Assembly: GCA_036393455.1 (NCBI GenBank)
Contig: DASWGX010000147.1
Span: 1-37,402 of the forward strand
Length of the DNA: 37,402 bases
Direction: 5' to 3'
From: Polyangiaceae bacterium
Lineage (GTDB): Bacteria; Myxococcota_A; Polyangia; Polyangiales; Polyangiaceae
How positions within the stretch are numbered: the first letter of the stretch is position 1; every line of letters starts with the position of its first letter. The notes below the pieces were generated by a model that ran no database searches, was not told where the DNA came from, and saw only the letters and a list, made by a program, of their open reading frames with translations. Shown one piece after another: positions 8,508 to 30,634 of this stretch. Both the position numbers and the translations under genes were made by a program.

Positions 8508-8556
8508 GCTCAGTCGTCGTCGCGCCTTCTGGGCTCAGTCGTCGTCGCGCCTTCTG
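8508..8556. repeat. 25-bp-offset tandem duplication spanning the ppk stop codon
   Basis: GCTCAGTCGTCGTCGCGCCTTCTG occurs at 8508-8531 and again at 8533-8556. The second copy encodes the last ppk codons (RRRRDDD-stop on the minus strand). The first copy is a non-coding duplicate just downstream. Confidence 0.9.
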
Positions 8557-10790: not shown

Positions 10791-10930
10791 GATCGAAGGG
10801 GAATCACGCCACACCTTAGCGCCGGAGCCCATTCCGGCAGCCTGCCGGCCGGAGGTCCGGGAAACATTTCACGCGTCCGTCACCGAGGATTCTCTGGGAC
10901 CGCACCGACGGGCGCGGCTAGTCTTGGTCG

Positions 10931-14442: not shown

Positions 14443-14865
14443 CTATCGCTCCGGCTTCTTGCTGTCGCGGGTCTCGAGGTCGAGCGCGGCGGAATTGATA
14501 CAGTAGCGTTGACCCGTAGGCGCGGGGCCGTCGCCGAAGACGTGCCCGAGGTGCGCGCCGCAGCTCTTGCACTGGACTTCCGTTCGTCGCATCCCGTGGC
14601 TCGCGTCGTCGAGCTCGTCGATCGCGCTTGCGTCGATCGGCCGGTAGAAGCTCGGCCAGCCGCTGCCCGAGTCGTACTTCGTCTCGGAGTCGAAGAGCGA
14701 CGCTCCGCAACACACGCAACGGTAGGTCCCCGCGTCCTTGCAGTCGTAATACCGGCCCGTGAACGGCCGCTCCGTCGCGCCTTCACGGGTGACACGATAG
14801 GCTTCCTCGCTCAGCTCGGAACGCCATTGCTCGGGGGTTTTCTCTGGCTTCGGGGTCGCCGGCAT
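14443..14865 (-). CDS. msrB: peptide-methionine (R)-S-oxide reductase MsrB
   Basis: 140 aa with two CxxC pairs (CVCCG, CKSCG), plus GWPSF and the catalytic RYCINSAAL. Confidence 0.95.
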
Positions 14866-15379: not shown

Positions 15380-18300
15380 CTAAGGGCGTTCGACTTCTTC
15401 ACGCGTGAGCGCTTGCAGAAAGGGCTGGAGCGCGTGTGGTTTGGGCGGAGCTACGAGGGGCCAGAGTCGGACAGTAGCGTCCGCGCTGGCGGATGCCGCT
15501 ACATCGTGACCCGGCCACAGCGCCACGTCGAACACCGGTGCTCGATGTCCTTCGAGCTCGCGGCGCTCGCCGCTTTCGACGTCCCATACCGAAAGCGAAG
15601 CGTCACCGCTCGCGCTCACCAGCAGGCGGCCGTTCCGGCTGAACTCTACGTCCCACACGAGCGCGCGGTGGCCGCGAAGCTCGCGACAGCGTGCGTTCGA
15701 CTGCGCGGGACAGAGCCAGAGGCGCGGCGCCACGCCCGCGACGGCAAGCGTCTTTTCATCGGGCGAAAGGTGCGCCAGGCGCGCACCGGTCAGTCCGCCG
15801 AGGCGCCCAGCGGGTTCGCCGGCGGAGCTCCAGAATCGAACCGCGTCGTCGCCGCCCGCGGTAACGAAGCCGGAGCCGTCCCTTCGCCACACGATGCTCG
15901 ATATGCGTCTCCGGTGTGCCTGGATTTCGTGCTTCAGCGTCGCGTCGGCGACGGTCCAGAGGCGGAGCGAGCCGCCGCGCGTTCCCGTGGCCAAGACGCT
16001 TCCGTCCGGCGAAAACGCCACGGCTGCCGCATCGTCTTCGTGCGAGAGCTCGACGCTTCGCCCCGAGTCGATTTGCCAGATACGAACCGTGTGATCTTCC
16101 GCCGCCGACGCGAGCAGATCGCCTCCCGGGGAGAACGCGATTTCCTCCACGTCCGCGCGATGGCCGACGAGCTCCCGCGGAGCGCCGTCCGAAAGCGGCC
16201 ACAGGCGTACCGTTTGATCGTCGCTCGACGACGCCAGCAGGCCTCCGTCGGGAGCGAACGCGACGCGATAGACGTGATCACGATGGCCTTCGAGAGTGCG
16301 CGCCGCGGCCGAGGCGAGCTCGACGAGTCTGACTCGATTGTCGTGACCCCCCGAAGCGAGCAAGCTTCCGTCCGGCGAGAAGGCGACGGCATGCACGCCG
16401 ACCTCGTGCCCGCGCAGCACTCGCTCGTGGTCGTTGACCGGGCCGAGCCGCCAGGCGCGCAGCGTCTTGTCCCAGGAACCGCTGACGAGCAGGTTCTCCC
16501 GCGCCGTCAGGTTGGAAACGACGTCGCCGTGCCCGCGCAGCGTCTGCACGATGCCCGTTTCGAGGTCGTGAACGCGCACCATGCGGTCCCAGCCAGCCGA
16601 CGCAAGCCGCCGGCCTGCGTCGAGGAACAACAGCGCGTCGATGCGTTCGGAATGCGGCTCGAGATCGCGGCGCTCGTCGCGGTCGAGGTCGTAAAGCCCG
16701 AGCGCGCCGTCGATGCTGCCCACCGCGAGCCGCCGTCCCACGGCCGCGAACGCGAGCGCCGTCACCGAGCCACGGCTGCCGCGCAGGACACTGCGCGGCG
16801 CGCCGTCGTCGCCGAACAGAGTCACGTTGCCTTGCACGTCGCCAGCCGCGACGACGTCACCTTCGGGAGCGAATGCGGCGACTCGGAGCGGGCCGGTCCG
16901 GCCGCGCAGCATGCGCTCCTTTCCCGAATCGAATGACCACAGCGACAGCGCGCCGCCGTGCCCGCCGCTCAGCAGAGAGCGGCCGTCCGGAGAGAACGTC
17001 ACGAACGCCGCGCGATCGACCGGCAGAGACGCGCACTCGGGCTCGGCCTTGCCAATCTGCCAGACGCAGACGCGCCGGTCATCGGCGATGGAAGCCACGC
17101 GTGTGCTGTCGGGGCTGAACGCGACGTCGCGCACGGGCGCGGCGTGGCGGCCGAGCGGCGTTCGTTCGAAGGTCGCGGTTTCGTAGAGGTAGATCGCGCC
17201 GTCGTAGCCGGCGCTGACGACGAAGCGGCCGTCGCTCGACGCGCGGACGCTAGTGACTTGGTCGGTGTGCGGCTGGAGCGGAGTCGACTGGTTGGTTTCG
17301 CTGTCCCAGAGCAGCACCTGATGATCCGCGCCGGCGGAGAGCACGCGGCGTCCGTCCGCAAGCATGGCGATGCTTCGGACTTCGGCGCGGTGGCGGCGCG
17401 AAATGGCCCAAGCTACGCCGCGGTCCTCGGCCAGCGCAGCAACCGACGCGGCTCCCGGGGTGGGCGAGCCCAGACGTTTGAGCCACGCGACCGCCTGCGT
17501 CGGATCCGTGTCTGAAAGAAAGCGCGCCTTTTCGACGATGAACTGGTCGACGCGGTGTTCGGCCACCTCGCGCGCGTCGTGTTCCGCCGCGGCGCTCGCC
17601 TTGGCTTTGTCCGCGCTCTGGGTAGCCTGGTCGCGTTCTTCGGCGATGCTGATCAAGCTGTACACGCCGAGCAGCAGCAGGATCAGAATCCCCAGGAACC
17701 CCGTCGCCACCGCGGCGCGGTTCCGCTCCGCGAAGCGCCCGGCTTTCTCGAGCAGCGTGTAGCGGTACGCTCGCACCAGGCGTCGCTGGTTGAAACGCCG
17801 GAGCTCCTCGGCGAGCTCCTCGGCGCTCGCGTACCGCCGGGCGGGTTCTCGCTCCATGGCCTTTTCCACGACGGCCACGAGGTCCGCCGGTGCGTCGGGA
17901 GCGCGGCGCGATAGCGGCGTCGGCGCTCCGCGCAGTACGCGTCCGGGGAAGTCGACGTCGCCTTCGTCGACGTACGGCGGATGCCCGCTCAATAGATGGT
18001 AAATCATTGCGCCGATGGCGTAGATGTCGGCGCTCTTGTCGACCGGCTGCCCCGCGGCCTGCTCCGGCGGCATGTACGCCGGGGTTCCGAGCACCGCGCC
18101 GACGAGGGTTTCGAAGCCCGATGCGTGTCGAAGCGGCTCGACGACGACGGGGTCATCGTCGTCGTCGGTTTCCTTCGCCAAGCCCCAGTCGATGACCACG
18201 GTTTCGCCGAAACTGCCGACGAGCACGTTCGCCGGCTTCAGGTCGCGATGAATGACGCCCTGATCGTGCGCGTAGGCGATGGCTTCGGCGACGTCGATCA

Positions 18301-18802
18301 CCCGGGGCAAAAGGGCGAGGCGTTCGGTGGCGGTGTCGCAGTGAGAGATGGCTTCGGAAAGCGATTGCCCTTCGACGAGCCGCATCGCGTAAAAGTCGCG
18401 ACCCCTAGGGGTCCGCCCCGCCTCGTAGACGGGAATGATGTTGGGATGTTGGAGCTTGGCCGTGATGCGGATTTCGCGCGCGAAGCGTTGCAGCGCTCCG
18501 GAATTCCCCGGCTCGATTTGTTTGAGCGCGACCACGCGTTCGAGCCGGAGATCGCGCGCGCGCAGGATGCGGCCGATGCCGCCGCGGGCGACCTCCCCTT
18601 CGAGCCTGTAGTGCGCCGGGGCGTCCGGACCCTCGAGGGCCGAACTCGGCGGGACGTCGGTGGGCCGCGTCGTCGGCAGGCTCGACTGCGAGGCCGTGAT
18701 CGAGTCCGGGTCCGTCGCCGAGCCTGCCTCTTTTCGGGTCTCGTCCTGCCGCGTCGCCTCAGCGCGTGCTCTTGCCCGGTCCGGCTCGCTCGGCGACGCC
18801 AT
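15380..18802 (-). CDS. membrane-anchored Ser/Thr protein kinase with about 16 WD40 repeats
   Basis: Hanks kinase motifs are present (VVALKQ, VIHRDLKPANVLV, DWGLAK, GTPAYMPPEQ). There is one TM helix (GFLGILILLLLGVYSLISIA), then a coiled segment and about 16 repeats of the type H...V..VAFSPDG..LAS...D.TVRLW. I prefer the ATG at 18802 (MASPSEPD...) over the tracked 19003. Confidence 0.9.
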   Translation of the reverse strand: MASPSEPDRARARAEATRQDETRKEAGSATDPDSITASQSSLPTTRPTDVPPSSALEGPDAPAHYRLEGEVARGGIGRILRARDLRLERVVALKQIEPGNSGALQRFAREIRITAKLQHPNIIPVYEAGRTPRGRDFYAMRLVEGQSLSEAISHCDTATERLALLPRVIDVAEAIAYAHDQGVIHRDLKPANVLVGSFGETVVIDWGLAKETDDDDDPVVVEPLRHASGFETLVGAVLGTPAYMPPEQAAGQPVDKSADIYAIGAMIYHLLSGHPPYVDEGDVDFPGRVLRGAPTPLSRRAPDAPADLVAVVEKAMEREPARRYASAEELAEELRRFNQRRLVRAYRYTLLEKAGRFAERNRAAVATGFLGILILLLLGVYSLISIAEERDQATQSADKAKASAAAEHDAREVAEHRVDQFIVEKARFLSDTDPTQAVAWLKRLGSPTPGAASVAALAEDRGVAWAISRRHRAEVRSIAMLADGRRVLSAGADHQVLLWDSETNQSTPLQPHTDQVTSVRASSDGRFVVSAGYDGAIYLYETATFERTPLGRHAAPVRDVAFSPDSTRVASIADDRRVCVWQIGKAEPECASLPVDRAAFVTFSPDGRSLLSGGHGGALSLWSFDSGKERMLRGRTGPLRVAAFAPEGDVVAAGDVQGNVTLFGDDGAPRSVLRGSRGSVTALAFAAVGRRLAVGSIDGALGLYDLDRDERRDLEPHSERIDALLFLDAGRRLASAGWDRMVRVHDLETGIVQTLRGHGDVVSNLTARENLLVSGSWDKTLRAWRLGPVNDHERVLRGHEVGVHAVAFSPDGSLLASGGHDNRVRLVELASAAARTLEGHRDHVYRVAFAPDGGLLASSSDDQTVRLWPLSDGAPRELVGHRADVEEIAFSPGGDLLASAAEDHTVRIWQIDSGRSVELSHEDDAAAVAFSPDGSVLATGTRGGSLRLWTVADATLKHEIQAHRRRISSIVWRRDGSGFVTAGGDDAVRFWSSAGEPAGRLGGLTGARLAHLSPDEKTLAVAGVAPRLWLCPAQSNARCRELRGHRALVWDVEFSRNGRLLVSASGDASLSVWDVESGERRELEGHRAPVFDVALWPGHDVAASASADATVRLWPLVAPPKPHALQPFLQALTREEVERP

Positions 18803-18995
18803 GCATACCCGCTCGGCCCATAGCACGGCGCGAAAGCGCGCCTCCGACGGAGCAGGAGCGCCACGATTGATTTGTGGTGGAAACGGGAATCGCGTAATGG
18901 AGGGGCTGACGCCGTCCCGGCACGTGGAGCCTTTGCACTGCTGTGCCGGGGTGTTGCGGGAAGTTTCAGGCAGGAGTCGTGGGCTATTTGCAATC

Positions 18996-19046
18996 TGGCA
19001 CATTGTCGTGGCACACTGCGTCTCCGCGAGTGACGCAGGTGTGCCA
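18996..19046. promoter_or_regulatory. TGGCACA direct repeat plus 14/15-bp inverted repeat in the divergent kinase / beta-barrel-EBP control region
   Basis: TGGCACA occurs at 18996-19002 and 19009-19015. The left arm TGGCACACTGCGTC (19009-19022), a 9-nt spacer, and the right arm GACGCAGGTGTGCCA (19032-19046) form a near-perfect palindrome with one bulged base. It lies 65 nt upstream of the 19111 ATG. Confidence 0.5.
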
Positions 19047-19110: not shown

Positions 19111-19947
19111 ATGATCCATCGAACCCTAGCCCTGTGTGCGGCGGTCGCGGCACTGAACCTGGCGCTCCCTTCCCTGGCCGCGGCACAGTCCGCCGGCGAG
19201 GAACCGGGTACCGCCGCCACCGCCGAGCCTGGCCCGGACTCCACCATGATCGCCGATGCCGAGGCCGGCGCCTCGCCGGTGGAACAGGCCGGGCGCACCT
19301 ACCGCTTCGTCGGCTTGCGCTACCGCGGCATCATCGTTCCCAAATTCATGATGAATCTGTTCGGTGACGGCGGCAGCACCGTGTACGTGAACGGCATCGG
19401 GCCGGAGTTCAACATCAGGAAGGACGGGTTCGAGTACAGCTTCGCCGCGTGGTGGGCGGGCTATGGCATGGGCGAGACGCCGTTCAAGTCGAGCTCCGAC
19501 TCGCAGCTTGCTTGGGAAATAGTCGAGAGCAAGCTCAACGTGATCTACCTCACGGCGGACTTTCTCTGGAGTCAGGAGTTCACGCCGCAGTTCTCCTTGA
19601 ACTACGGGCTCGGCGCCGGCTTCGGCTTCGTGTTCGGCGATCTGTTTCGCACTCAGGCGTATCCGAATCCGCCCGAATCCGCAAACGACCCCGACGCGTA
19701 CGTCAAGTGCACCAGCGACACGGATCCCAACGACCCCAGCAACTTTTGCGACACCGACAACAACCACTACGCCGGCTACACCGAGCCGAGCTGGGCGAAC
19801 GGCGGCTCCAAGCCGATCATCTTCCCGTGGCTGTCGGTGCAGACGGGCATCCGCTTCAAACCGCACCGCAACTTCGTGGCTCGTTTCGACGCCGGCTTCG
19901 GCATTACCGGCTTTTTCATCGGCATCGGAGCCGACTATGGCCTGTGA
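19111..19947 (+). CDS. secreted beta-strand-rich protein, possible outer-membrane beta-barrel
   Basis: GGAGG lies 8 nt upstream of the ATG. The signal peptide is MIHRTLALCAAVAALNLALPSLAAAQS. The body has alternating aromatic/Gly-rich segments and ends ...GFGITGFFIGIGADYGL. Confidence 0.75.
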   Translation: MIHRTLALCAAVAALNLALPSLAAAQSAGEEPGTAATAEPGPDSTMIADAEAGASPVEQAGRTYRFVGLRYRGIIVPKFMMNLFGDGGSTVYVNGIGPEFNIRKDGFEYSFAAWWAGYGMGETPFKSSSDSQLAWEIVESKLNVIYLTADFLWSQEFTPQFSLNYGLGAGFGFVFGDLFRTQAYPNPPESANDPDAYVKCTSDTDPNDPSNFCDTDNNHYAGYTEPSWANGGSKPIIFPWLSVQTGIRFKPHRNFVARFDAGFGITGFFIGIGADYGL

Positions 19948-19977: not shown

Positions 19978-22900
19978 GTGAAACCGCTCGAGCTTCCGTC
20001 GCGCTATGAACCACTCGCTTGCCTGGGACAGGGCGGCGGAGGGCAGGTTTGGGCGGTCAAAGATCGCCTGAACGGCGATCGCTACGCGCTCAAGGTACTC
20101 TCCGACGGCGCCACCGAGAACGAGATGGCGGCCCTGGTCCGGGAAGCGGTGGCGCTGTCCGGTCTCGAAGGCCTCGGAGTGCCGCGCGTGGTCCGCTTCG
20201 GCAGGCTGCCCCGCGACGGGCGGCCGTTCATGGTGCGCGAGCTGGTCGAGGGAGAGAGCCTCGAAGCGCTCATGGAACGACCGGATCGCTCCGAGGACGT
20301 GCTCCACGCGATCGCTCGCGCGGCGGACCAGCTCACCGTGTTGCATCGCACGGGGCTACTGCACGGCGACGTCAAGCCCGCCAACGTCATCGTTCAGGAC
20401 CGGCGCCGCGCCACCATGGTCGACCTCGGTCTTGCGGCGCCGTGGCTGGAAGGCGGAGCGCGCCCGCAGGGGCTCACGCCGCGCTACGCCGCGCCGGAGC
20501 TCTTCATGGGGCGGCCGCTCACGGTGCGGGCGGAGGTGTACGCGCTCGGCGTCATGCTGGGCGAAGCCCTGGAAGCGGCGTCGCACACCATCGACGCCGC
20601 CCGGCGCGAGGCGCTGCTCGACGTGGCGCGCCGTGCCACGTCGAAAGATCCGGACGAGCGCTATCCATCGGCCGACGAGTTCGCTTCGGCGTTGCGCAGC
20701 GCGGCGCGCTTCGCCGCCGAGGAGCGCGCTGCCACGGACGGCGCGGGTTGGCCGATCGTCGGCATCGACGCGGTGTCGTCGGACCTTTCTCGCTCGGTGC
20801 TCGGGCTGGGCGCCGGGCAGCTGCTTCGCATCGACGGACCTCCGGGCTCGGGGCGAAGCGCGCTCCTGCGCCGCATCGCCTGGTCGCTCGAAATGGCGGG
20901 CCGCGCGGTGGCATGGCTCGACGCGAGCATGGTGAGCTTACCGAGCGCCGTGCGCGGCGAGCTCGAAGCAACACCCGCACCGGACGTCGTCGTCTTGGTC
21001 GACGACGCGAGCGCCCTCTTGCCCGAAAGCGCGCGGGAGCTTTCGGCGCTGCGCGGGAAGGGCGCCCGGCTCGTGACGGTGGGCGGCACGGCGCTCGGAA
21101 CCGTCGATGTCACCTTCGAGGTGCCGCCGCTCGACGCCCGCGCCGCCATCGATCTGGTGCGGCGGGCCGTGCCGTCGTTGACGGAGCGGCTCTCCAAGCG
21201 GCTGGTTTCGGCCGCCGAAGCGCGGCCCGGCGAGCTCCGCCGCCTGGTCCAACTGATTGCGAAGCGCCCGGTCGCGTCGGAACGCGACATCGAGGCGCTG
21301 CTCGGCGTCGCCTCGGTGCCGCCGCCATCCGGGGATCCGCTCGAGGAAGTGACTCAGCTGCTCGATCAGGGTCGTTTCGGCGACGCCGGCGCGGCGCTCG
21401 AACGACTGACTCCGGAGATCATCGCCGAACGGCCGCTGCAAGTGTCGGTGGCGCGCGCGCGCTTGCTGCTCAACCAAGGCGAGGCGCCCGCCGCGCTCAG
21501 GGTGTTGCGCGAGCAAACCCCGAGCGACGACGCGCCCGAAGCGGCACGGTTTGGCTGGACACTGGCGCTCGCTCGCGCGCACCTTGGCGCGGGCGACTAC
21601 GCGAAAACGGCGGAGCTTGCCGCGCCGCTCAGGGACGCGCCCGGCACGTTTCGTTGCGAGGCGCTCACGTCCTACGGGCTCGCGCTTTCGTTTCAGGGCC
21701 GTCACGACGAAGCGGGCAAGGTTCTGGAACAGGCCGTGGCAGCGGCGCAGAGCCTGGGGTTGCCGCGCCTGGAAGCCGTCGCGCTCGGTTCGCTGGCGCT
21801 CGCGCAGCAGCGCGCCGATCGTCTCGAGGACGCCAAGGCTCGCTATGAACAGGGTCTCGAGGCGGCCGAACGCGCCGGCGACGCTGGGAACCTCGCGACG
21901 CTGCGGTTGAACCTGGCGTCGCTCTTGAAGGTGAGCGGCGACATCGCCGCGGCGATCGAGCACTACGAAGCGGCCGTCGACATGGGGCGGCGCAGCGGAC
22001 GTCGCGCGGCCGAGCGTCAAGCCCTCTTGAATCTCGCGAACGCGGACTTGTACCTCGGGCGCCTGGCGCGGGCACGCGCGAGCATAGAAGCGCTTGAGGA
22101 GCAGCGCGGCGAGCTCTCGCCGATGGAGCGAGCACAATTGAACGGACTTGCCGCGGACCTCTACGCACGGCAAGGGCGGATCGAACAGGCCACCGTTGCC
22201 TATGAGGCGTGCGCGGTGGCGTTCGAAGCGCTCGGACGCACGCTCGACGCTGCCGAGTCGCGGCTCGAAAGCATCCTGGTCGCCGTGCGCGATCCCAAGG
22301 CGCAAGTGCTCGAGCTCCGGCGTCAATTGCGCCGCGCCGCGGACGAGCTCGGTAGCGCTCCTGCACATCGCCCGCTGTTGCTCCTGGCGGAGGCGCGCGT
22401 CGCGGCCCTGGCGGGTGACGAGCAGACCGCAAGGGAGCGGCTGGAACGAGCGCTCGATGCTGCGCGAGAGGCGCAGCAGAAGGAATGGATCTGGCGCGCG
22501 CTCGAGTCGCGCGCCGAGCTGGCGGACGCGGCGGGTCAGAGCCTGCACGCGCGCCGCGATCGCGAAGAAGCGCTGGCGCTACTGGAGGAAATCGGAGCCA
22601 GACTGCCGCGCGATCTGCGCGAGGTGTACTGGAATGACCCGCGCCGTCGCGGCCTGCGCGCCCGCGTGGAATCGGGAGTCGCCGCGGCGCCCACGGAGCG
22701 CTACGACGCTGACCCGCTGCGCCTCGACGCCGGAACGCGCGGACGCACTTCGGTGTCGACGTTGTCGGCGACGCCGCTCGAGCAGCGCCTGGCGCGTATC
22801 CTCGAGATCAACAGCGAGCTGGCCGGGGAGGTCGACGTCGAACGGCTCACGACGCGGGTCACCGATCACGCCGTCCAGCTCTTGCGGGCGGAGCGCGGCT

Positions 22901-24381
22901 ACGTGCTCTTGTGCGAGCCGAACGGCGAGCTCACGGTTCACACTTCGCGCTCGCTCGCGGGCGACGCTCAGCACCACGAGTTCTCGCGGTCGATCGCGCA
23001 ACGCGTCGTCGAGACGCGAGAGCCGTTCATGTCGATGAGCGCTCGCGACGACGCGCGCATCGCCGGCTACTCGTCCGTGCATCAACTGATGCTCGAGTCG
23101 GTGGCATGCGTGCCGATTCTGGCGCCTTCGGGGGCGGCAATCGGCGCCCTGTACCTCGAAACTCGACTGCGTCCCGGCGTGCACTTCGAACGCGAGCTGT
23201 CGACGCTGCGCGCGTTCGCGGATCAGGTCGCCATCGCGTTCGAAAACGGGCGGCTGATTCGGGAGAACCGCGCGCGCGCCAGCGAGCTCGAACGAGCCAA
23301 CGTGGATCTCGCGGAAGCCCAGGAGCACCTGCGCGAGCTCTTGGGCGATCGGACGCGCAAGCTCAAGCAGGCACGCAGGAAGCTGCGGGCCGCTCACGAG
23401 CGCCTCTACGCTCATTTCGGCTACCAGGGGCTGGTCGGCACGAGCGACGGGATGCGGCGGGTGTATTCGCTGATCGATCGCGTCAAGGATACGGACGTGC
23501 CCGTGCTCATCACCGGGGAGAGCGGCACCGGCAAGGAGATGGTGGCACATGCCGTGCACGCGGCGTCGTCACGCGCTTCCGCGAAGTTTCTGGGTATCAA
23601 CTGCGGCGCGGTTCCCGAGCAGCTACTCGAGAGCGAGCTTTTTGGTCACGTCCGCGGCGCGTTCACGGGGGCCGATCGCGACCGCAAGGGGCTATTTCGC
23701 GAGTGCGAGGGTGGCACCATCTTGCTCGACGAAATCGGGGAAACCCCTGCCAAGATGCAGGCGACGCTGCTCCGGGTGCTGCAAGAGCGAAAGGTGCGTC
23801 CCGTCGGCGGCAATCAGGAAGAAGACGTCGACGCTCGCGTACTCTTCGCGACGAACAAGGACCTCGCGGAGCTGGTCTCGCGCGGGACCTTTCGAGAGGA
23901 TCTGTACTACCGCATCGTCGTGGTCGAGGTTCCCCTGCCGCCGTTGCGCGAACGCGCCGACGACATTCCGCAGCTCGTCGATCATTTTCTGGGCTTGTTC
24001 GCTGCCCGCTACAAGCGCGAAAAGCGCGCGGTGTCGCGTGAAGCAATGAGGCTGCTGGCGACGCAAACCTGGCCGGGCAACGTGCGGCAGCTCGAGAACG
24101 TGCTGCTCAACGCCTGGATCTTGAGCGAGGAAGCGGAGCTCTTGCCGGAGGATTTCGACTTACCGAGTTCCCACGGCGCCGCGCCGGCTGCCCGGGCCGA
24201 GCGCACATCCGCGGTGGCCCGGCAGCGGCGCGGCACGATTTCGGAACATCATCATGACGAACGTTCGCGCATCCTGGAGGCGCTCGAGGCGAGCAACTGG
24301 AACCGCGTGAAAGCGGCGGAGCTCAGCGGCATTCCGCGACGCACCTTTTACCGCCGGCTGCGCGAATACGGGATCCAGTAG
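19978..24381 (+). CDS. Ser/Thr kinase - P-loop NTPase - TPR - GAF - sigma54-dependent AAA+ activator - Fis HTH fusion protein
   Basis: 1,467-aa ORF starting 30 nt after the previous stop. The kinase module has LGQGGGGQV, YALKV, HGDVKPAN, DLG and AAPE. The central NTPase has Walker A GPPGSGRS and Walker B VVVLVDD. A TPR-like region spans about aa 455-900 and a GAF domain about aa 935-1092. The sigma54 module has GESGTGKE, GAFTGA, LLDEIGE and PGNVRQLEN. The C-terminal HTH reads NWNRVKAAELSGIPRRTFYRRLREYGI. Confidence 0.9.
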   Translation: MKPLELPSRYEPLACLGQGGGGQVWAVKDRLNGDRYALKVLSDGATENEMAALVREAVALSGLEGLGVPRVVRFGRLPRDGRPFMVRELVEGESLEALMERPDRSEDVLHAIARAADQLTVLHRTGLLHGDVKPANVIVQDRRRATMVDLGLAAPWLEGGARPQGLTPRYAAPELFMGRPLTVRAEVYALGVMLGEALEAASHTIDAARREALLDVARRATSKDPDERYPSADEFASALRSAARFAAEERAATDGAGWPIVGIDAVSSDLSRSVLGLGAGQLLRIDGPPGSGRSALLRRIAWSLEMAGRAVAWLDASMVSLPSAVRGELEATPAPDVVVLVDDASALLPESARELSALRGKGARLVTVGGTALGTVDVTFEVPPLDARAAIDLVRRAVPSLTERLSKRLVSAAEARPGELRRLVQLIAKRPVASERDIEALLGVASVPPPSGDPLEEVTQLLDQGRFGDAGAALERLTPEIIAERPLQVSVARARLLLNQGEAPAALRVLREQTPSDDAPEAARFGWTLALARAHLGAGDYAKTAELAAPLRDAPGTFRCEALTSYGLALSFQGRHDEAGKVLEQAVAAAQSLGLPRLEAVALGSLALAQQRADRLEDAKARYEQGLEAAERAGDAGNLATLRLNLASLLKVSGDIAAAIEHYEAAVDMGRRSGRRAAERQALLNLANADLYLGRLARARASIEALEEQRGELSPMERAQLNGLAADLYARQGRIEQATVAYEACAVAFEALGRTLDAAESRLESILVAVRDPKAQVLELRRQLRRAADELGSAPAHRPLLLLAEARVAALAGDEQTARERLERALDAAREAQQKEWIWRALESRAELADAAGQSLHARRDREEALALLEEIGARLPRDLREVYWNDPRRRGLRARVESGVAAAPTERYDADPLRLDAGTRGRTSVSTLSATPLEQRLARILEINSELAGEVDVERLTTRVTDHAVQLLRAERGYVLLCEPNGELTVHTSRSLAGDAQHHEFSRSIAQRVVETREPFMSMSARDDARIAGYSSVHQLMLESVACVPILAPSGAAIGALYLETRLRPGVHFERELSTLRAFADQVAIAFENGRLIRENRARASELERANVDLAEAQEHLRELLGDRTRKLKQARRKLRAAHERLYAHFGYQGLVGTSDGMRRVYSLIDRVKDTDVPVLITGESGTGKEMVAHAVHAASSRASAKFLGINCGAVPEQLLESELFGHVRGAFTGADRDRKGLFRECEGGTILLDEIGETPAKMQATLLRVLQERKVRPVGGNQEEDVDARVLFATNKDLAELVSRGTFREDLYYRIVVVEVPLPPLRERADDIPQLVDHFLGLFAARYKREKRAVSREAMRLLATQTWPGNVRQLENVLLNAWILSEEAELLPEDFDLPSSHGAAPAARAERTSAVARQRRGTISEHHHDERSRILEALEASNWNRVKAAELSGIPRRTFYRRLREYGIQ

Positions 24382-24397: not shown

Positions 24398-24420
24398 GCG
24401 CGCGCTCAGCTCGCGCGCGC
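24398..24420. terminator. GC-only inverted repeat between the convergent EBP and HEAT genes
   Basis: GCGCGCGC (24398-24405), loop tcagctc, GCGCGCGC (24413-24420). The right arm lies inside the last HEAT codons. There is no U-tract on either strand. Confidence 0.2.
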
Positions 24421-26163
24421 CTCGACTCGATACATGACCTGCTTGAGCGGTGCGTCGGCGGCGGCCTTGTCCCGATCCGCGGACTTTTCGTTCTTCTCGA
24501 TGATGGCTTCGAGCTGCTTCGCGACCTCTGCAGAGCCCTTGGGAGACAGGGTGTCGATCACCTTGGCCGCGACGAAGCGAACCGCGGCGTTGTCAATGGA
24601 CTCGAGCCGTTCGATCAATGCGTCGCGAGCCTTCTCGTCGCCCAAGATTCCGATCATGTAGCCGGCCTTGATCCCCGCGTACTGATTCTTCTGATCGAGG
24701 TTTTCGCTCTTTTCGATAGCCGTGAGGTAACAGTCGACTCGGTCGGCGCACTCTTTGACCAGGGGTTCCACCTGCGCGAGCAAATCGTTCTCGAGCTTGG
24801 TGCCGTAGCGCGAGAAAGCGGCCTTGACCTTCGACATCTGCTCGGGCTTGGCCAACTTGACCATGGTGAGCAGCAAGGTGCCCTGAAGCGCCTTCAAATC
24901 CTCGCCGCCGCCCTTCGTGTTGGCGGCCCTGTCGATCAGCCAGTCCACCATGCCGGCATCGAAGAATTGGCCAGATGCCTCGGCGAGCATCTGCAGCGCG
25001 CTTTCGCCGGGTGGCACGACGGTTTCGAGCGAGATGGACTCGAACACGTTCTTGAACGCGCGTTTGGATTCCGGCGTCGGCGGCAGCTTCGTCAGCTCGC
25101 GGGCGATGATGGCTTTGTTCTCGTCCTCGACGTTGCCCTTCAGCGCCTCCACGAGCGGCGTGATCGATTCCGAGCGCCCGATCGTGCCGAGCACCAATGC
25201 GGCGGTGGGGAGATACGGTTTGCCCGTGGGCTCTTCGCGCGCGCCGGTGACTTCTTTGATGCGGCGGCGATTGAACGCGATGAGCTTGTCGGCTTCCCCC
25301 TTGAGCAGCTTGGCGGTGGCGTCAGCCGCGGGCTTTCCGATTTTCACCAGGGCCAGCGCCGCCGTCGCCTGCACGTCGGCCTTGGCCGGGTCGAGCATGA
25401 CTTTGAGCAGCGGCTCGACGGCGCTCGCGTCCCCGATGCGACCGAGAATCTCGGCTGCGGTCACCTGCCAGAACAGCTGATCTCGGTACGGGTCGATCAA
25501 ATCTCGATCTTTGGCGCTCCTCGGTACTTTTATCTCCGGCTCCAGCATCGAGGTCAGCGTGCCCGACCAGGACGAGTGCGACAGCTGATTCATCGCCTTG
25601 CTGAAGTCCTTGTAGACGATCCCGCCCAGCATCGAGCTCGCCTTGAGCTTGGTGAAGGCTTGGAGCATCGGGTCTGCGACGGACTCCAGCTTCATGTCTC
25701 CGGCGGCGAGCGCCGCCCATTTGATGTCTTGCTCGTCTTTGGTCGTGCGCGGACGCTTGGCGAACTCCTCGAACGCCTTGCGAATCGCCGGTTCGGCGCG
25801 CTTGTCCCTGAACGCGCCGAGCAACTTTATCAACGTGACGCGCGTCTTGGTGTCGAGATTGGAGTACTCGTCGACGTAGAGCTTGGTGAGCGGGTCGATC
25901 ACCTCGTCGACCAGAGCCTTGACGTCGGGGGCCTCGCGATCACTGCTCGCTTTGGTGGCGGCGTCCTCGTAGAATTGCTCGAGGCGCTTGACGGACCGCG
26001 GTCTCCAGGGCGGGTCTTCGAGCTTACCCACCCAGTATCCCGGTTGGCTCTCGTCCTTGCAGGCTACGAGCGTGGTGGTCGCCGCGCCGATAGCAACGGT
26101 TGCGGCCGTGCCGAGCGTCAATGAGCGGATGAGCGAAGCGACGACTTTGCGGGAGCGCAGCAT
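24406..26163 (-). CDS. HEAT/armadillo-repeat lipoprotein
   Basis: I prefer the ATG at 26163, which has GGAGG upstream. The N-terminus MLRSRKVVASLIRSLTLGTAATVAIGAATTTLVACKDE has a lipobox. The body is all-helical and repetitive with HEAT-like A..ALG.IGD...V..L.. units. Confidence 0.85.
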   Translation of the reverse strand: MLRSRKVVASLIRSLTLGTAATVAIGAATTTLVACKDESQPGYWVGKLEDPPWRPRSVKRLEQFYEDAATKASSDREAPDVKALVDEVIDPLTKLYVDEYSNLDTKTRVTLIKLLGAFRDKRAEPAIRKAFEEFAKRPRTTKDEQDIKWAALAAGDMKLESVADPMLQAFTKLKASSMLGGIVYKDFSKAMNQLSHSSWSGTLTSMLEPEIKVPRSAKDRDLIDPYRDQLFWQVTAAEILGRIGDASAVEPLLKVMLDPAKADVQATAALALVKIGKPAADATAKLLKGEADKLIAFNRRRIKEVTGAREEPTGKPYLPTAALVLGTIGRSESITPLVEALKGNVEDENKAIIARELTKLPPTPESKRAFKNVFESISLETVVPPGESALQMLAEASGQFFDAGMVDWLIDRAANTKGGGEDLKALQGTLLLTMVKLAKPEQMSKVKAAFSRYGTKLENDLLAQVEPLVKECADRVDCYLTAIEKSENLDQKNQYAGIKAGYMIGILGDEKARDALIERLESIDNAAVRFVAAKVIDTLSPKGSAEVAKQLEAIIEKNEKSADRDKAAADAPLKQVMYRVEARAS

Positions 26164-26255
26164 ACGGTGGCCTCCAGAAAATGCGGTTATGACGAAGGCC
26201 CCTCGAGGTGGGGCGTGCCGGAACCCGCAAATACGCAAGTTCCCAGTGTTTCGGG

Positions 26256-26508: not shown

Positions 26509-27330
26509 TTAGTCGAGACGGCCGAGCTCGGCCGTGAGGCGCTCGATCACGGCTCGATGCAGATGATGATTCGTCGCAACCAATCCTCTGTCGTTGACGA
26601 GGCTCGGCGCGCGGTAGGAGATGGGCGCACCATTCTGGTCGGTGAAGCACCCGCCGGCCGCGGTCACGATGGCGTCGGGAGCGCACGCATCCCAGCGCTT
26701 GCCGGCGCGGTTGGGGGCGATGTAGGCGTCGGCTTCGCCGCTGGCGACCGCGGCCGCCTTGAGCCCGGCGGAGCCGAGCGAGCGCCAGTGCGCGGCGCCC
26801 AGGGCGCGACGCGCACGCTCGAGGGTTTGGCTCTTGTGCGAGCGCGAGCCGACGATCGAGGCCTCCGCCAGGTTGAGGGTTTCGCTGCACCGAATCGGCC
26901 GGCGCGAGGCATCCGGACCGATCGTCCAGGCGCCGCGGCCCACCTGCCCGACCCAGGTCCAGCCTCGAGCCGGCGCTTGCACGACGCCGTGCGATGCGCG
27001 GTCTCCCTCGAGTAGGCCTATCATCACGACGAACTCGCCGTTCCTTTCGACGAACTCGCGCGTGCCGTCGACGGGATCGACGAAGAACACGCGCGGCGCC
27101 TTGCGAAAGCCGGCGAAGGACTCTTCGTCGCTCTCCTCGGCCACGACGGGCACGTCGGGGTAGCGCTCGTGCAGCCGAACGCAGATGAGCCGGTTCGCGC
27201 GACGATCCGCTTCGGTGACCGGATCGCGCGGAGCCTTGTACTCGACGCTGAACGGCTTGGCGTAGATCTCGTTCACGAGGGCCGACGCCTCCGCGGCGAT
27301 GCGAACCATGTCTTCCAGGAGCTCCGTCAC
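26509..27330 (-). CDS. cysQ: inositol monophosphatase-family phosphatase, CysQ-like 3'(2'),5'-bisphosphate nucleotidase
   Basis: Only the C-terminal 273 codons of the tracked 597-aa ORF look real. The GTG at 27330 overlaps the AKR stop (GTGA). Motifs VAEESDEE, FFVDPVDGTREF (GT[KR]EF is CysQ-typical) and KRWDACAP are present. Confidence 0.8.
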   Translation of the reverse strand: MTELLEDMVRIAAEASALVNEIYAKPFSVEYKAPRDPVTEADRRANRLICVRLHERYPDVPVVAEESDEESFAGFRKAPRVFFVDPVDGTREFVERNGEFVVMIGLLEGDRASHGVVQAPARGWTWVGQVGRGAWTIGPDASRRPIRCSETLNLAEASIVGSRSHKSQTLERARRALGAAHWRSLGSAGLKAAAVASGEADAYIAPNRAGKRWDACAPDAIVTAAGGCFTDQNGAPISYRAPSLVNDRGLVATNHHLHRAVIERLTAELGRLD

Positions 27331-28271
27331 ACTTCGACTCCCGCCGTGCGCAGGCGTCCTTCGAGGCCTCCCGAGCTGCCTGCGGCGAGGTAGGGCGGCT
27401 TCTTTCCCGCCTCGCGCACGAGCTGATCGAGCTGCAAGGTATCGCGCGGCCCGAGCACGGCGGAGGCGACCTTGTCGTTCTCGAGCACGTAGCGCAGAGC
27501 CACGCCGCGAAGCGTGGTCTTTTCGGCGGCCGCCGTGGGCCTCATCGCGTTCAGCTGGCGAATCCTGCGGCGAAACTCGTCGGGGGTCCAGCGTTCGGCG
27601 CGGTGGTCGTTGTCGGGAAACTCTTTGCCGGACGCCCATTGCCCGCACAGAAGGCCATAGAGCAGGGTCGAATGAGCCAGCACGCCCGCGCCCGTCGTCT
27701 CGAGGTCGGGAGTCAAGAGCTTGAGCGGTCGCGGCACGAACGCGTTGTGACCGATCGAAACGACCTCGGCCCCCGCCGCGAGCGCCGACTTCGCCGCTTC
27801 GAGCGTGCCGGCGCTGACGCCCCATGCCTGCAACTTGCCGTTCTGTTTCCACTCCTTCAGCAGGCTCGTCGCGTCGCCGCGTTTCACGACTTGTGAGCTC
27901 GGGTTGTGCAAAAGGACGATATCGATGCGTTCGCGCCTGAGCCGTTCGAGCGAGCGTTCGAGCGCCTGCGACAAGTAGTCGGGCTCGAAGCGCTTCTGGG
28001 GCGGGGAAGCCTCCAGATCGGTGCCGAGCTTGGTGGCGATCAAGGCGTCCGCGCGCCCTTCGAGGCGGGCGCCCAAGCGTTCCTCCATCTTTCCCTTGGC
28101 GTAGCTGTCGGCGGTTTCGAACAGACGGATGCCGAGAGCATAGGCTCGCTCGATCACACGGTCCTGTTCCGCCTCGCTCACGGGTCCGTAGCCGTCGCCG
28201 GACAAACCCCAGGTGCCGAGGCTGAGCTCGGTGACGTCGAGACCGGTCTTGCCCATCTTTCGGCGCCGCAT
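27327..28271 (-). CDS. aldo/keto reductase
   Basis: 314 aa starting MRRRKMGKTGLDVTELSLGTWG. It has FETADSYAKG and the typical AKR (beta/alpha)8 sequence pattern. Confidence 0.9.
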   Translation of the reverse strand: MRRRKMGKTGLDVTELSLGTWGLSGDGYGPVSEAEQDRVIERAYALGIRLFETADSYAKGKMEERLGARLEGRADALIATKLGTDLEASPPQKRFEPDYLSQALERSLERLRRERIDIVLLHNPSSQVVKRGDATSLLKEWKQNGKLQAWGVSAGTLEAAKSALAAGAEVVSIGHNAFVPRPLKLLTPDLETTGAGVLAHSTLLYGLLCGQWASGKEFPDNDHRAERWTPDEFRRRIRQLNAMRPTAAAEKTTLRGVALRYVLENDKVASAVLGPRDTLQLDQLVREAGKKPPYLAAGSSGGLEGRLRTAGVEV

Positions 28272-28332
28272 GCGGGCGGTATAGCAGACGTGGCCGGCGC
28301 ACGCGTTTCGCGTGGGCCCGAGATCCGAGAGG

Positions 28333-29073
28333 TCAGGGGAGCAGCGACCGGGGCACCTCGAGATCGGCGCTCCGCATTAGCGCCCGGTCTCGAAGCACGG
28401 CCGCAGCCGGTCCGCGGGCGTGAACGCGTCCTTCGCGAATCACGACGACGGCGCCTTCGACCTCGAGCGCGGCTTCGAGATCGTGCGTGGCGACCACGAG
28501 TGTCGAATCGGCGTTCGTCATTGCGCGCAGGACGGCCGATCGCGATTTGGGATCGAGGCTCGCCGTAGGCTCGTCGAACAGCAGCACGCCGGGCCGGAGC
28601 GAAAGCGCGGCGGCGAGCGCGAGACGGCGCTGTTCGCCCAGGCTGAGCTCGGCCGGGTCGCGCTCCGAGAGCCGCTCGAGCGCCACCGCTCCGAGCGCGC
28701 TCTCCGTGCGCCGGCGTCTTTCCGCGGGCGGCAGGCCGAGGCGCTCGGGCCCAAAGGCGACCTCTTCTGCGACCGTCGCGCAAAAGAGCTGATCGCTCGG
28801 GTTGGCGAACACGAAACCGATGCGTTCGCGCGCCCGGGCGAGATATTTTTTCGAGAGCGTCACGGGCCCGATGCGCACGGTTCCGCGGAAGGGCAGCGCG
28901 CCGACGAGCGCGAGAAGCAGCGTCGTCTTGCCGGCGGCATTGGGTCCGACCAAGAAGACGCGCTCCCCGGGTTCGACGCGGAGGTCGACGTCCGAAAGCA
29001 CGGTGCGACTGGAACCGCGCGCGTCGACGCGGTCGACCGAGAGCGACTCGACGTCGATTCGGTCCGCGTTCAC
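28333..29073 (-). CDS. cbiO: ECF/cobalt-type ABC transporter ATP-binding protein (CbiO/EcfA-like)
   Basis: The GTG at 29073 overlaps the cbiQ stop (GTGA). It has Walker A GPNAAGKTT, signature LSLGEQRR, Walker B LLLFDEPT and H-loop VATHD. Confidence 0.85.
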   Translation of the reverse strand: MNADRIDVESLSVDRVDARGSSRTVLSDVDLRVEPGERVFLVGPNAAGKTTLLLALVGALPFRGTVRIGPVTLSKKYLARARERIGFVFANPSDQLFCATVAEEVAFGPERLGLPPAERRRRTESALGAVALERLSERDPAELSLGEQRRLALAAALSLRPGVLLFDEPTASLDPKSRSAVLRAMTNADSTLVVATHDLEAALEVEGAVVVIREGRVHARGPAAAVLRDRALMRSADLEVPRSLLP

Positions 29074-29795
29074 GGCCGTACCGGGCTGCTGACCAGCCCG
29101 GCGCGCAACACGTCGCTCGTGTCGGAGTCTGCCGAGCCTGCGAGTGTGTAGAACGATGCGACCAGCAACGTGACCGCGCCGAGGAGCCACGCGTCGTGAA
29201 GCCTCAAACGAGCGCCCTTGCCGGCTCCCGCGCTTGCCGACCCTCGGAGGTTCATCGCGAGCTCCACGCGCTCGGCTCGGCGAACGCTGCACAGGAGCAG
29301 GCTCGGGAGCACGCCTACCATGGAAGCGACGCCGGTCGCGCGTCGCAGCTGGCGCGCCAGCACGAGCCGGTCCCCGACGCGGGCCAGCTCGCCGAGCTGG
29401 CGCAGCAACGTGGAGACGGTGTCGGCGATACCGCGCGGCGTGCCCAGGGCGATGAGCGCCGAGCCGAGCTCGCTTCGCGGCAACGAGGCTGCGAACGCGA
29501 CCGCGAACGTGATGCAAACCGCGGCACGTGCCACGCGCAACAAGGCGCCGTCCAGAGGGCCCGCGAGCGCAATCGGAGTCACGGTAACCAGTACCGCTCC
29601 GTAGGCGAAGAGCAGGCGGCGCGCGTGGCCCCCGCGCGTGACGAAGCAGAACACGGCGGCGAAAAGAGCGGCGAGGGCCAATGACGCGTGTGCCTCGAGC
29701 GGTAGCAGCGCCGTCGCGGTGACCAGCGTAAGGCAGCTCAACAGTCGAGCGGCCGGCGAGCTCCGGCGCTCGAGCCAGCTCGAGGCGCGCGTCAT
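29070..29795 (-). CDS. cbiQ: ECF transporter transmembrane (T) component, CbiQ-like
   Basis: The ATG at 29795 overlaps the cbiM stop (ATGA). The protein is about 241 aa, multi-pass and hydrophobic, with an A..RG-type coupling motif (ELAMNLRG). The upstream part of the tracked 480-aa ORF is out-of-frame overlap with cbiM. Confidence 0.7.
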   Translation of the reverse strand: MTRASSWLERRSSPAARLLSCLTLVTATALLPLEAHASLALAALFAAVFCFVTRGGHARRLLFAYGAVLVTVTPIALAGPLDGALLRVARAAVCITFAVAFAASLPRSELGSALIALGTPRGIADTVSTLLRQLGELARVGDRLVLARQLRRATGVASMVGVLPSLLLCSVRRAERVELAMNLRGSASAGAGKGARLRLHDAWLLGAVTLLVASFYTLAGSADSDTSDVLRAGLVSSPVRP

Positions 29796-30634
29796 GGGCG
29801 GTCCGGAGGCGTTTGCGGCTCCGTGGCGCCCAGAGATTCTTCCGCCAGCGCTGCGCGGGAGCGCGCCGCTGGCTCGGCTCTTTCCTCGCCGACCAGGCGC
29901 TCGAGCGCATCCGGAGCCGAGCTCGCGAAGGGGACCAGCGCTCCCACCGCGAGCGCAGCCACGGCGAACACCTTCCACCCGCCGCGCTGCCCGCTCTGCG
30001 CCGCGAGTGGGGCCGGCGTCAGGGTGAGAATCCCCGGGGCGCGGCCGTGGAGCAGGCGGACCGCGACGGCGGTCAGCGCGCCCTCCACCGCGCCGGCGGC
30101 GGTCTGAACCCCCACCAGCAAACCGTACGTCAGTCCGGGTGGCGCCTGGCCGCCTTCCACGAGCACGAAGGCCAGTGTGCTCGAGCCGAGCAGGCTGCCG
30201 ATCACGGTGCCCGCGAAAGCGCACGCGGTGAGGCCCCGCAGCGTTTGCCCGAACGCCCGACGACAGGCGTGCATCGAGAGCGCGGGCAGAATGGCGATGG
30301 TGAGGAGGTTGATGCCGAGCACGGTCACGCCGCCGTCGCTCAAGAGCAGTGCCTGCACCAAGAGCACAGCGCACAAAGCGGCGATGGCCCGCGCCGGGCC
30401 GAGCGCCAACGTCAAGAGTCCGGCGCCAATGACGTGCGCGCTCGTGCCGAGCCAGACCGGCACGTTGAGCGCCTGCGCCGCCAACGCGAACGCGCCGAGC
30501 GTGCCCGTCCATGCCGCCTGTTCGCTGCCGCGGCGAAACGCGCGATGATACGCGACGCCGGTCAAGGCCAGGCCCGCGACGTTCAGCGCCAGGACGGGCG
30601 CGGTCTGCGTCACGATGCCGTCGGCCAAGTGCAT
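29792..30634 (-). CDS. cbiM: cobalt/nickel ECF transporter substrate-capture subunit CbiM/NikM with a C-terminal PDGLE-like extension
   Basis: The N-terminus MHLADGIV carries the Met-His metal-ligating start typical of CbiM/NikM. About 6 TM segments follow. The tail adds an extra TM plus SSAPDALERL, which resembles the PDGLE/CbiN-like domain. Confidence 0.85.
   Translation of the reverse strand: MHLADGIVTQTAPVLALNVAGLALTGVAYHRAFRRGSEQAAWTGTLGAFALAAQALNVPVWLGTSAHVIGAGLLTLALGPARAIAALCAVLLVQALLLSDGGVTVLGINLLTIAILPALSMHACRRAFGQTLRGLTACAFAGTVIGSLLGSSTLAFVLVEGGQAPPGLTYGLLVGVQTAAGAVEGALTAVAVRLLHGRAPGILTLTPAPLAAQSGQRGGWKVFAVAALAVGALVPFASSAPDALERLVGEERAEPAARSRAALAEESLGATEPQTPPDRP

Follow-up and report, generated by a model that had tools for sequence, protein, structure and literature searches.

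A NifA-type sigma54 activator that carries a Hanks-type kinase and a STAND-TPR arm in the same polypeptide in Polyangiaceae

Activators of sigma54-dependent transcription (bacterial enhancer-binding proteins, bEBPs) are controlled by phosphorylation of a receiver domain, by ligand-binding domains (GAF, PAS, and V4R), or by anti-activators. Myxobacteria have hundreds of Ser/Thr kinases and dozens of sigma54 activators, and Jelsbak et al. reportedly described, in 2005, FHA-domain sigma54 activators of Myxococcus xanthus. The kinase PknK of Mycobacterium tuberculosis, to our knowledge, lacks a GAF-sigma54 AAA+-helix-turn-helix (HTH) end. In the present study, we analysed a stretch of 37,402 nucleotides (nt) from a Polyangiaceae bacterium (assembly GCA_036393455.1, contig DASWGX010000147.1, positions 1 to 37,402; hereafter the window), in which one gene encodes a Hanks-type Ser/Thr kinase, a STAND-type NTPase, TPR-like repeats, a GAF domain, and a sigma54 activator. 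Relevant precedents come from work on M. xanthus: bEBPs in general are dimers at rest and oligomerise on a signal, and in the M. xanthus bEBP PexR the GAF domain autoinhibits the AAA+ domain and the dimer binds dyad repeats (PMC12754779). At ahpC, PexR uses such repeats both to repress a sigmaA promoter and to activate a sigma54 promoter (PMC12754779).

We found good support for describing the protein as a cytoplasmic one-polypeptide signal integrator of Polyangia, which consists of a complete NifA-type (group III) sigma54 bEBP and a PknK/MalT-like N-terminal arm of ~900 residues. The gene and its parts are as follows.

19978..24381, + strand: the whole kinase-STAND-TPR-GAF-sigma54 AAA+-HTH_8 gene; 1467 residues, GTG start, TGA stop
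20002..20727, + strand: Hanks-type Ser/Thr kinase domain (residues 9-250); Pkinase; HGDVKPAN, K39, DLG, AAPE
20803..21342, + strand: STAND-type P-loop NTPase (residues 276-385) and helical/winged-helix arm (residues 386-455); nSTAND_NTPase5; GPPGSGRS (Arg293), VVVLVDD
21343..22668, + strand: ~20 TPR-like helices (residues 456-897); TPR_12, with TPR_MalT below threshold; helical solenoid in the AlphaFold model; fold matches to LGN/Pins and OGT TPR
22483-22668, + strand: highly conserved last TPR helices (residues 836-897; W..W..RDREEA..LPRDLREVYWNDPRRR, also written W..RDLREVYWNDPRRR); column identity 0.89
22669..22770, + strand: predicted disordered Ser/Thr-rich linker (residues 898-931); predicted local distance difference test (pLDDT) <50; invariant T906 and S927
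22771..23427, + strand: GAF domain (residues 932-1095) and coiled-coil signalling helix (residues 1096-1150); GAF_2; NifA model over 936-1467
23428..24168, + strand: sigma54-interaction AAA+ domain and lid (residues 1151-1397); Sigma54_activat; GESGTGKE, GAFTGA, LLDEIGE, FREDLYYR, PGNVRQLEN
24250..24378, + strand: Fis-type HTH_8 DNA-binding domain (residues 1425-1467); recognition helix PRRTFYRRL

The open reading frame (ORF) runs for 1467 codons without an internal stop. From the preceding stop TGA (19945-19947) to the kinase domain, GTG at 19978 is the sole in-frame codon at which translation could start. A preliminary description, made from the sequence alone, had reported a single uninterrupted 4,404-nt ORF of coding-like composition; the translation and the full-length colinear orthologues confirmed the former, and the G+C content at third codon positions (0.82, matching the neighbouring genes) the latter. 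All the motifs that it had quoted were present in the translation, namely LGQGGGGQV, YALKV (K39), HGDVKPAN, VDLGLA, YAAPE, GPPGSGRS (R293), and VVVLVDD, and, at the activator end, GESGTGKE, GAFTGA (1227-1232), LLDEIGE, and PGNVRQLEN. The six modules that it had distinguished were all borne out by hidden Markov models (HMMs), by motif conservation across the family, and, in the STAND-TPR arm, by an AlphaFold prediction of high confidence, and the Pfam scan of the protein agreed with it that there is no receiver domain.

Pfam placed Pkinase (residues 11-201, 83.9 bits against a cut-off of 31.7, E 1.6e-23, profile positions 2-194 of 263) and Sigma54_activat (residues 1152-1318, 224.5 bits against 20.2, E 8e-67) on the same polypeptide, as had been predicted. 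TPR_12 (45.2 bits against 30.1), GAF_2 (residues 952-1089, 49.9 bits against 28.6, E 5e-13), AAA_lid_14 (residues 1324-1395), and HTH_8 (residues 1428-1464, 50.3 bits against 22, E 2e-13) also scored above their cut-offs, nSTAND_NTPase5 (residues 279-366) narrowly so with 36.8 bits against 34. TPR_MalT (residues 558-831) was sub-threshold, with 31.5 against 45.

Orthologues were sought in a space of 5.8 billion proteins. The matches listed included 120 clusters of 1453-1508 residues with 98-100% query coverage, 59-87% identity, and the same Pfam set. Their database names were 'sigma 54-interacting transcriptional regulator' (bins of Polyangiaceae, Myxococcales, and Sorangiineae) or 'serine/threonine-protein kinase PknK', and many orthologues are labelled 'PknK' in the JGI annotation. 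A metagenome scan with two family-specific peptides, RDLREVYW and RDREEALA, gave 80 loci; the 5' end of the gene was present in 64 metagenome loci, most of which had a single full-length ORF. When the full-length alignment was used to scan a genome collection, matches to the generic peptide L[IV]TGESGTG dominated and ordinary activators were returned; two loci (L001 and L002) were rejected as full-length members, not being single ORFs of this architecture. Protein clusters and metagenome loci together formed a family set of 156 non-redundant members, and a smaller alignment contained 35 orthologues. Thus, more than 150 non-redundant orthologues, colinear and about 45-87% identical, occur in Polyangiaceae and other Myxococcota metagenome bins. 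The cultured species Polyangium spumosum has a colinear orthologue with 54% identity (locus L165; GCA_009649845.1, WJIE01000007.1:255341-271882), and the nearest relative of the window (L084) has 87% identity. Because colinear full-length orthologues come from independent assemblies, a frameshift or assembly artefact is excluded.

In the kinase domain, K39, H129-G-D131, K133, N136, D149-L-G, and APE (A-P-E174) are invariant among the 35 orthologues and near-universal among the 156 members, and the G-loop is also kept. By sequence, the domain therefore has the G-loop, beta3 Lys, catalytic Asp and Asn, Mg-binding Asp, and APE of a Hanks-type kinase, with DLG as the Mg-binding motif in 149 of the 156 members. 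The RD arginine is missing: 154 of the 156 members and almost every paralogue have HGD in the catalytic loop, and the kinase is thus of the non-RD type. The arginine before the catalytic Asp is the mark of kinases that are controlled via activation-loop phosphorylation. These features fit a working enzyme without that kind of control, and the non-RD Hanks kinase is probably active.

The STAND domain follows the expected architecture, a P-loop core, a helical arm, and C-terminal TPRs, and departs from it in the P-loop itself. The Walker A lysine (GxxxxGK[ST]) is R293 in the window protein, and among the 156 members the position is occupied by Arg in 133, Lys in eight, and Gln in one. The degenerate P-loop noted in the preliminary description is thus a family trait. 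The second P-loop Gly is also lost in ~36 of the 156 members, and 114 retain the Walker B DD. The replacement of Lys by Arg probably represents a derived loss that has occurred repeatedly. Column identity of the nucleotide-binding domain (0.62) is the lowest of any folded domain, compared with 0.66-0.68 for the STAND helical arm and the TPR regions, 0.77 for the kinase, 0.79 for GAF, 0.86 for AAA+, and 0.90 for the HTH.

Apart from a weak match to a RecA-like P-loop, a PDB sequence search with the STAND-TPR arm yielded nothing but TPR proteins; thus, a fold search was needed for the STAND assignment. We modelled residues 245-938 with AlphaFold from 35 sequences (mean pLDDT 86.9, predicted TM-score 0.79). 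The model shows, in this order, a five-stranded P-loop alpha/beta core (pLDDT ~90), the helical arm, and ~20 TPR-like helices up to residue ~900. Its best PDB fold match was the STAND-TPR protein 6mfv (E 3.7e-7), with a low global TM-score of 0.27 that is expected since the arm is multi-domain, followed by LGN/Pins and OGT TPR domains. At the end of the solenoid, the block of residues 836-897 is as conserved as the AAA+ domain. The motif RDLREVYW was found in 156 of 156 members, a count that includes metagenome loci collected, and ORFs chosen, by the same motif.

The linker between the arm and the GAF domain is variable in sequence, yet T906 and S927 are always Ser or Thr in the family alignment, as is T932, the first residue of the GAF part. 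We infer that these three residues are candidate phospho-acceptor sites. The GAF domain has the invariant residues D1025, H1035, C1044, and E1061 (nt about 23050-23160). Its Cys-to-acidic spacing of 16 residues resembles that of the metal-binding GAF of PexR (C122-x17-D140), and the spacing in the NorR GAF seems similar. A role in sensing metal or redox state is possible from these residues.

The activator end has every sequence feature of a bEBP: a Sigma54_activat AAA+ domain with Walker A and B, a GAFTGA loop, and a C-terminal Fis-type HTH. GESGTGKE is present in 154 of the 156 members, GAFTGA in 145 with GAYTGA in nine more, and the Walker B pattern LLDE[IV] in 133, the other 23 failing the regular expression. 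The recognition helix PRRTFYRRL is invariant among the family sequences listed. The closest PDB sequence relative of the C-terminal 533 residues was NifA (9qq6_C, 8.8e-78), followed by ZraR, NtrC1, and FleQ. The NCBIfam NifA equivalog model TIGR01817 aligned to residues 936-1467 with 352.7 bits, below its cut-off of 528.85; the protein is therefore not a NifA equivalog and is NifA-like in architecture only. A Pfam scan of window ORFs identified none as rpoN; among relatives, Sorangium expresses rpoN (PMC3696898), and sigma54 is vital in M. xanthus (PMC12754779).

To place the family in a wider context, residues 1-1150 were compared exhaustively by HMMER with 1.84 billion representatives at E<=1e-30. 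This search gave 639 clusters, of which ~25 were colinear proteins of 1420-1530 residues and belong to the orthologous group. Dozens of further proteins of 1,560-1,810 residues match the TPR-GAF part at 31-38% identity and have the Pfam order Pkinase, (AAA_16), TPR, GAF, Sigma54_activat, HTH_8; the named members come from bins of Kofleriaceae, Sandaracinaceae, Polyangiales, and Myxococcaceae. These long paralogues share the domain order, the non-RD HGD loop, and, in most, GAFTGA with the main group. They differ in that only their TPR-GAF part aligned to it, in a longer NTPase region (AAA_16 above cut-off in two of the five scanned), in the Walker A Lys that many keep, in DFG where the main group has DLG (in most), and in the lack of the RDLREVYW block. 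About 13 of ~75 long superfamily representatives (P0256, P0262, P0295, P0297, P0299, P0302, P0303, and others) have the architecture apart from a GAFTGA or GAYTGA loop; possibly these are derivatives that work without sigma54. From the results of this search, the kinase-to-HTH architecture is an established Myxococcota-wide class. The preliminary description had presented the modules as normally residing on separate proteins; the fusion itself is real, but the implied rarity was overstated, since many clusters, at 50% identity, from across Myxococcota share this architecture.

The gene has a conserved partner directly upstream.

19111..19947, + strand: conserved upstream partner gene for a secreted protein of 278 residues, a predicted 8-stranded outer-membrane beta-barrel

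In the window, the two genes lie on the same strand with a 30-nt gap, in which a terminator scan found no terminator-like site; across the window and two loci read directly, the gap is 13-30 nt. A homologue of the barrel gene lies directly upstream on the same strand in 62 of the 64 loci with enough flank. The two genes are probably co-transcribed. The stop codon of the barrel gene (TGA at 19945) lies in the reading frame of the kinase-activator ORF. The barrel protein had no match in Pfam, and every named one of its 961 homologous clusters, which form a secreted family of ~280-300 residues, is 'hypothetical'. An AlphaFold model (pLDDT 81) has a signal peptide and an 8-stranded beta-barrel, with fold matches to the OmpA transmembrane domain, Ail, OmpX, NspA, and OmpW. 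A long loop, predicted to be extracellular, contains two conserved Cys residues, C200 (invariant) and C213 (near-invariant).

Upstream of this two-gene unit, we found an array of short hexamers.

18986..19046, + strand: cis element upstream of the two-gene unit; TGGCAC-N7-TGGCAC (18996-19014) and an inverted GTGTGCCA (19039-19046)

The paired hexamer TGGCAC-N7-TGGCAC occurs once in the window, at 18996-19014, where 0.17 copies are expected. We examined loci L081-L164 for the array. The pair was present once per locus, always on the + strand, in 43 orthologous loci (L086 has two adjacent copies) and was never found in 80 unrelated EBP loci. The profile of 41 distinct copies, cTTTGCcAgT-TGGCAC-WgTGCCA-TGGCAC-tAT-ssgcgCss-ttt, corresponds to four hexamers in alternating orientation. 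At least two hexamers within 40 nt were found at the array site in 55 of 57 loci, and clusters of at least three hexamers occurred nowhere else in any locus. In many loci, a TGACAC-N4-GTGCCA element lies ~100 nt further upstream. Among the bins with long contigs, GCA_041389725.1 (contig JAWKRG010000002.1, 1.88 Mb) has an orthologue together with the array. The hexamers may be half-sites for a Fis-type HTH, most simply that of the protein itself, which would mean autoregulation; this reading fits because the recognition helix is invariant.

In another of three readings of the array, the second TGGCAC would be the -24 element of a sigma54 promoter. As a plain -24/-12 promoter the array was rejected: the spacing from the first hexamer does not fit, and from the second the -12 GC is partly conserved and is missing in the window. 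The sigma54 consensus TGGCAC-N5-TTGC, with up to two mismatches, had 27 matches in the window against 32.8 expected and was thus uninformative, and simple sigma70 and terminator scans around the operon found nothing. At 19009-19046, the window has a long imperfect inverted repeat, TGGCACAC-TGCGTC, 9 nt, GACGCA-G-GTGTGCCA, with arms of ~14 nt, which was not seen in the other loci read. It could be a leader-RNA hairpin or an extended palindromic binding site.

The remaining neighbours are listed below.

15380-19003, - strand: divergent Pkinase and WD40 beta-propeller protein of 1207 residues; its longest-ORF start overlaps the TGGCAC array
24406..26238, - strand: convergent HEAT-repeat gene, a conserved neighbour, mostly paired with the FHA-GAF-sigma54 activator gene in other loci
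L081 15096-17048 (- strand), L082 14553-16493 (- strand), and 39 other loci: FHA-GAF-sigma54 activator of ~650 residues, absent from the window
8535-10832, - strand: polyphosphate kinase Ppk1
10931-12226, + strand: protein of 431 residues without a Pfam match
12271-14382, + strand: PrkA-type AAA serine kinase
14443-14865, - strand: MsrB
26509-30634, - strand: downstream inositol monophosphatase gene, aldo-keto reductase gene, and ABC-ATPase/CbiM cluster (cobalt or vitamin transporter of the energy-coupling factor (ECF) type), in the same order in L082 and L084

Of 53 loci, 47 have the HEAT-repeat gene downstream, and 41 have an FHA-GAF-sigma54 activator gene no more than 4 kb beyond the kinase-activator gene, always adjoining the HEAT-repeat gene. 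L084, like the window, has only the HEAT gene, and the P. spumosum locus is without the FHA activator; at the position in the window and L084, it was either lost or never present. That it is a recent paralogue with shared DNA specificity was considered and rejected, as the two recognition helices differ and its identity to the kinase-activator is 36%. L081 and P. spumosum also have PrkA, encoded a few kb before the orthologue, and the wider neighbourhood is therefore syntenic. The orthologous loci inspected have an alpha/beta-hydrolase gene in place of the Pkinase and WD40 gene.

Our best explanation as a whole, held tentatively and a little short of an even chance, is a NifA-type activator whose AAA+ engine is gated in cis by the kinase-STAND-TPR arm and the GAF domain. 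Gating of the output by kinase, NTPase, and GAF inputs, as the preliminary description proposed, is a reasonable hypothesis. At rest, the GAF domain and the STAND-TPR arm would hold the AAA+ domains as an inactive DNA-bound dimer, by analogy with GAF autoinhibition in PexR and the dimer-to-oligomer rule of bEBPs. The cue would be a ligand bound by the GAF domain, or else a ligand or partner that docks on the TPR surface, above all on its invariant RDLREVYW cap; it would shift the arm and bring the kinase domains together. The kinase could then phosphorylate, in trans, the disordered Ser/Thr-rich linker in front of the GAF domain (T906, S927, and T932) and, where it is present, a target of the neighbouring FHA-domain activator. 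With inhibition lifted, the AAA+ ring would assemble and remodel sigma54-RNA polymerase. Rather than being switched by ATP, the decayed STAND domain would serve as a scaffold that either needs no nucleotide or only binds it. The gene would be co-transcribed with the barrel gene from a control region in which the hexamer array may be bound by the protein's own HTH, giving autoregulation.

Several observations weigh against this explanation. The kinase activity, the phospho-sites, and the cue are all deduced, and the literature search found no experiment on any family member. The Walker A Lys is kept in the eight members mentioned above, in P. spumosum, and in many long paralogues; STAND ATPase activity may therefore matter in some lineages. 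Nothing near the operon stands out as a clean sigma54 -24/-12 promoter: the copy in the window, TGGCAC-ACTGC-GTCT, is without the -12 GC, and among the 41 profile copies the -12 G is found in 25 and the C in 33. P. spumosum keeps the gene pair and an identical recognition helix without the TGGCAC array, and the link between the HTH and TGGCAC is therefore weakened. Finally, the window has no FHA-activator neighbour and only the HEAT gene.

Other explanations divide the work of the protein differently. The kinase may be the main output, acting on the FHA activator or on PknK-type targets, while the AAA+/HTH end tethers the protein to DNA or builds mixed rings; we regard this as unlikely, though the catalytic residues of the kinase are invariant and the FHA activator stands near the gene, beside the HEAT-repeat gene, in most loci (the 41 of 53 given above). 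Hetero-oligomers of EBPs, which would suit it, were reportedly found in M. xanthus by Volz in 2012. The high conservation of the AAA+ domain, GAFTGA loop, and HTH (0.86-0.90), which with the RDLREVYW block (0.89) are among the most conserved parts of the protein, argues instead for a working activator; moreover, the FHA activator is missing from the locus in the window, in L084, and in P. spumosum, and that activator has a different recognition helix. In favour of the kinase as the output, M. tuberculosis PknK is reported to phosphorylate response regulators (PMC9045387). If, on the contrary, the N-terminal arm were a pseudo-enzyme scaffold for binding or oligomerisation, GAF alone would gate the activator, as in NifA or PexR, the latter giving a precedent. 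The loss of the Walker A Lys (to Arg) and of the P-loop Gly, the rank of the NTPase as the least conserved folded domain, and the incomplete coverage of the Pkinase profile (positions 2-194 of 263) point in this direction, but in more than 150 sequences the residues needed for phosphotransfer (G-loop, K39, D131, K133, N136, D149, and APE) do not vary, unlike what is expected for a pseudokinase, and we consider this version rather improbable.

The array invites a further explanation, in which the array overlaps a putative promoter of the sigma70 type (TTGCCA, 18 nt, TGn-CACTAT); at rest this promoter would be repressed, by the protein or by another regulator, which on a signal would activate a sigma54 promoter. 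PexR at ahpC is a precedent for such a dual role, and 36-40 of the 41 copies keep TTGCCA as well as the A and T of the -10-like hexamer. However, TTGCCA is equally readable as a fourth half-site, the window copy gave no match in the simple sigma70 scan, and the array is absent from P. spumosum; we have little confidence in it. An equally doubtful proposal goes beyond our best explanation to a self-contained 'eukaryote-style' switch: an envelope or metabolic cue, possibly via the barrel protein, would cluster the STAND-TPR arms, the linker of the neighbouring subunit would be phosphorylated, GAF inhibition would be released, and the FHA activator would be recruited into mixed AAA+ rings at TGGCAC-array enhancers. 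If true, Ser/Thr phosphorylation would directly license sigma54 open-complex formation, and bEBP ring assembly would be gated in a new way, without a receiver domain or an anti-activator. Last, the ORF could be a misassembled or frameshifted fusion of adjacent genes, or an anti-phage defence gene. The family nSTAND_NTPase5, matched here, has been described in the context of biological-conflict systems, and a PADLOC scan gave matches to a kinase and an RtcR-like AAA+ domain, but these are generic, domain-level matches, and none was specific to a system. The surroundings are of a housekeeping kind, unlike a defence island, and chromosomal synteny is stable for the genes of PrkA, HEAT, inositol monophosphatase, aldo-keto reductase, and CbiM/Q, and with more than 150 colinear full-length orthologues in independent assemblies the artefact is effectively refuted; we find the pair of possibilities hardly credible.

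We thus favour cis gating of a NifA-type activator. A Hanks kinase and a STAND switch wired in cis to an AAA+ engine would represent a distinct control logic and would directly bridge two signalling systems that are expanded in myxobacteria, Ser/Thr kinases and sigma54 activators. The sequence is already in databases, under automated names ('PknK' and 'sigma 54-interacting transcriptional regulator') that each cover half of the protein. A full-text literature search found no functional study of a cis-acting kinase-STAND arm on a bEBP, and no functional study or accessible description of kinase-sigma54 activator fusions, in line with the preliminary description, which knew of no functional study. 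Large multi-domain regulators are expected in myxobacteria; the conserved operon, the cis element, and the P-loop polymorphism should be useful to signalling specialists. Handles on the system are P. spumosum as a cultured host, the candidate phospho-sites, the natural Lys/Arg polymorphism, the conserved partner gene, and the sharply defined candidate DNA site.

Among described systems, the FHA-domain activators of M. xanthus resemble the protein in linking Ser/Thr phosphorylation to sigma54 activators in myxobacteria. In their case the kinase acts in trans, on an FHA reader or via it, whereas here it is fused in cis and there is no FHA domain. M. tuberculosis PknK and the STAND regulators of the MalT/AfsR type share the N-terminal part: a Hanks kinase, a STAND/AAA_16-type NTPase, and a MalT-like TPR region. 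The main group differs from them in its Walker A Arg and its non-RD kinase, and it would act by activating sigma54-dependent transcription rather than through a LuxR-type HTH or solely by phosphorylation. The group III bEBPs, Azotobacter vinelandii NifA and M. xanthus PexR, share the other end, with the same succession of GAF, signalling helix, AAA+ domain with GAFTGA, and Fis-type HTH, and the C-terminal 530 residues align end to end with the NifA model. Compared with PexR, the GAF invariants are D1025/H1035/C1044/E1061 and not H102/H120/C122/D140; compared with NifA, the protein has no nif or NifL context and carries a kinase-STAND-TPR extension of 930 residues.

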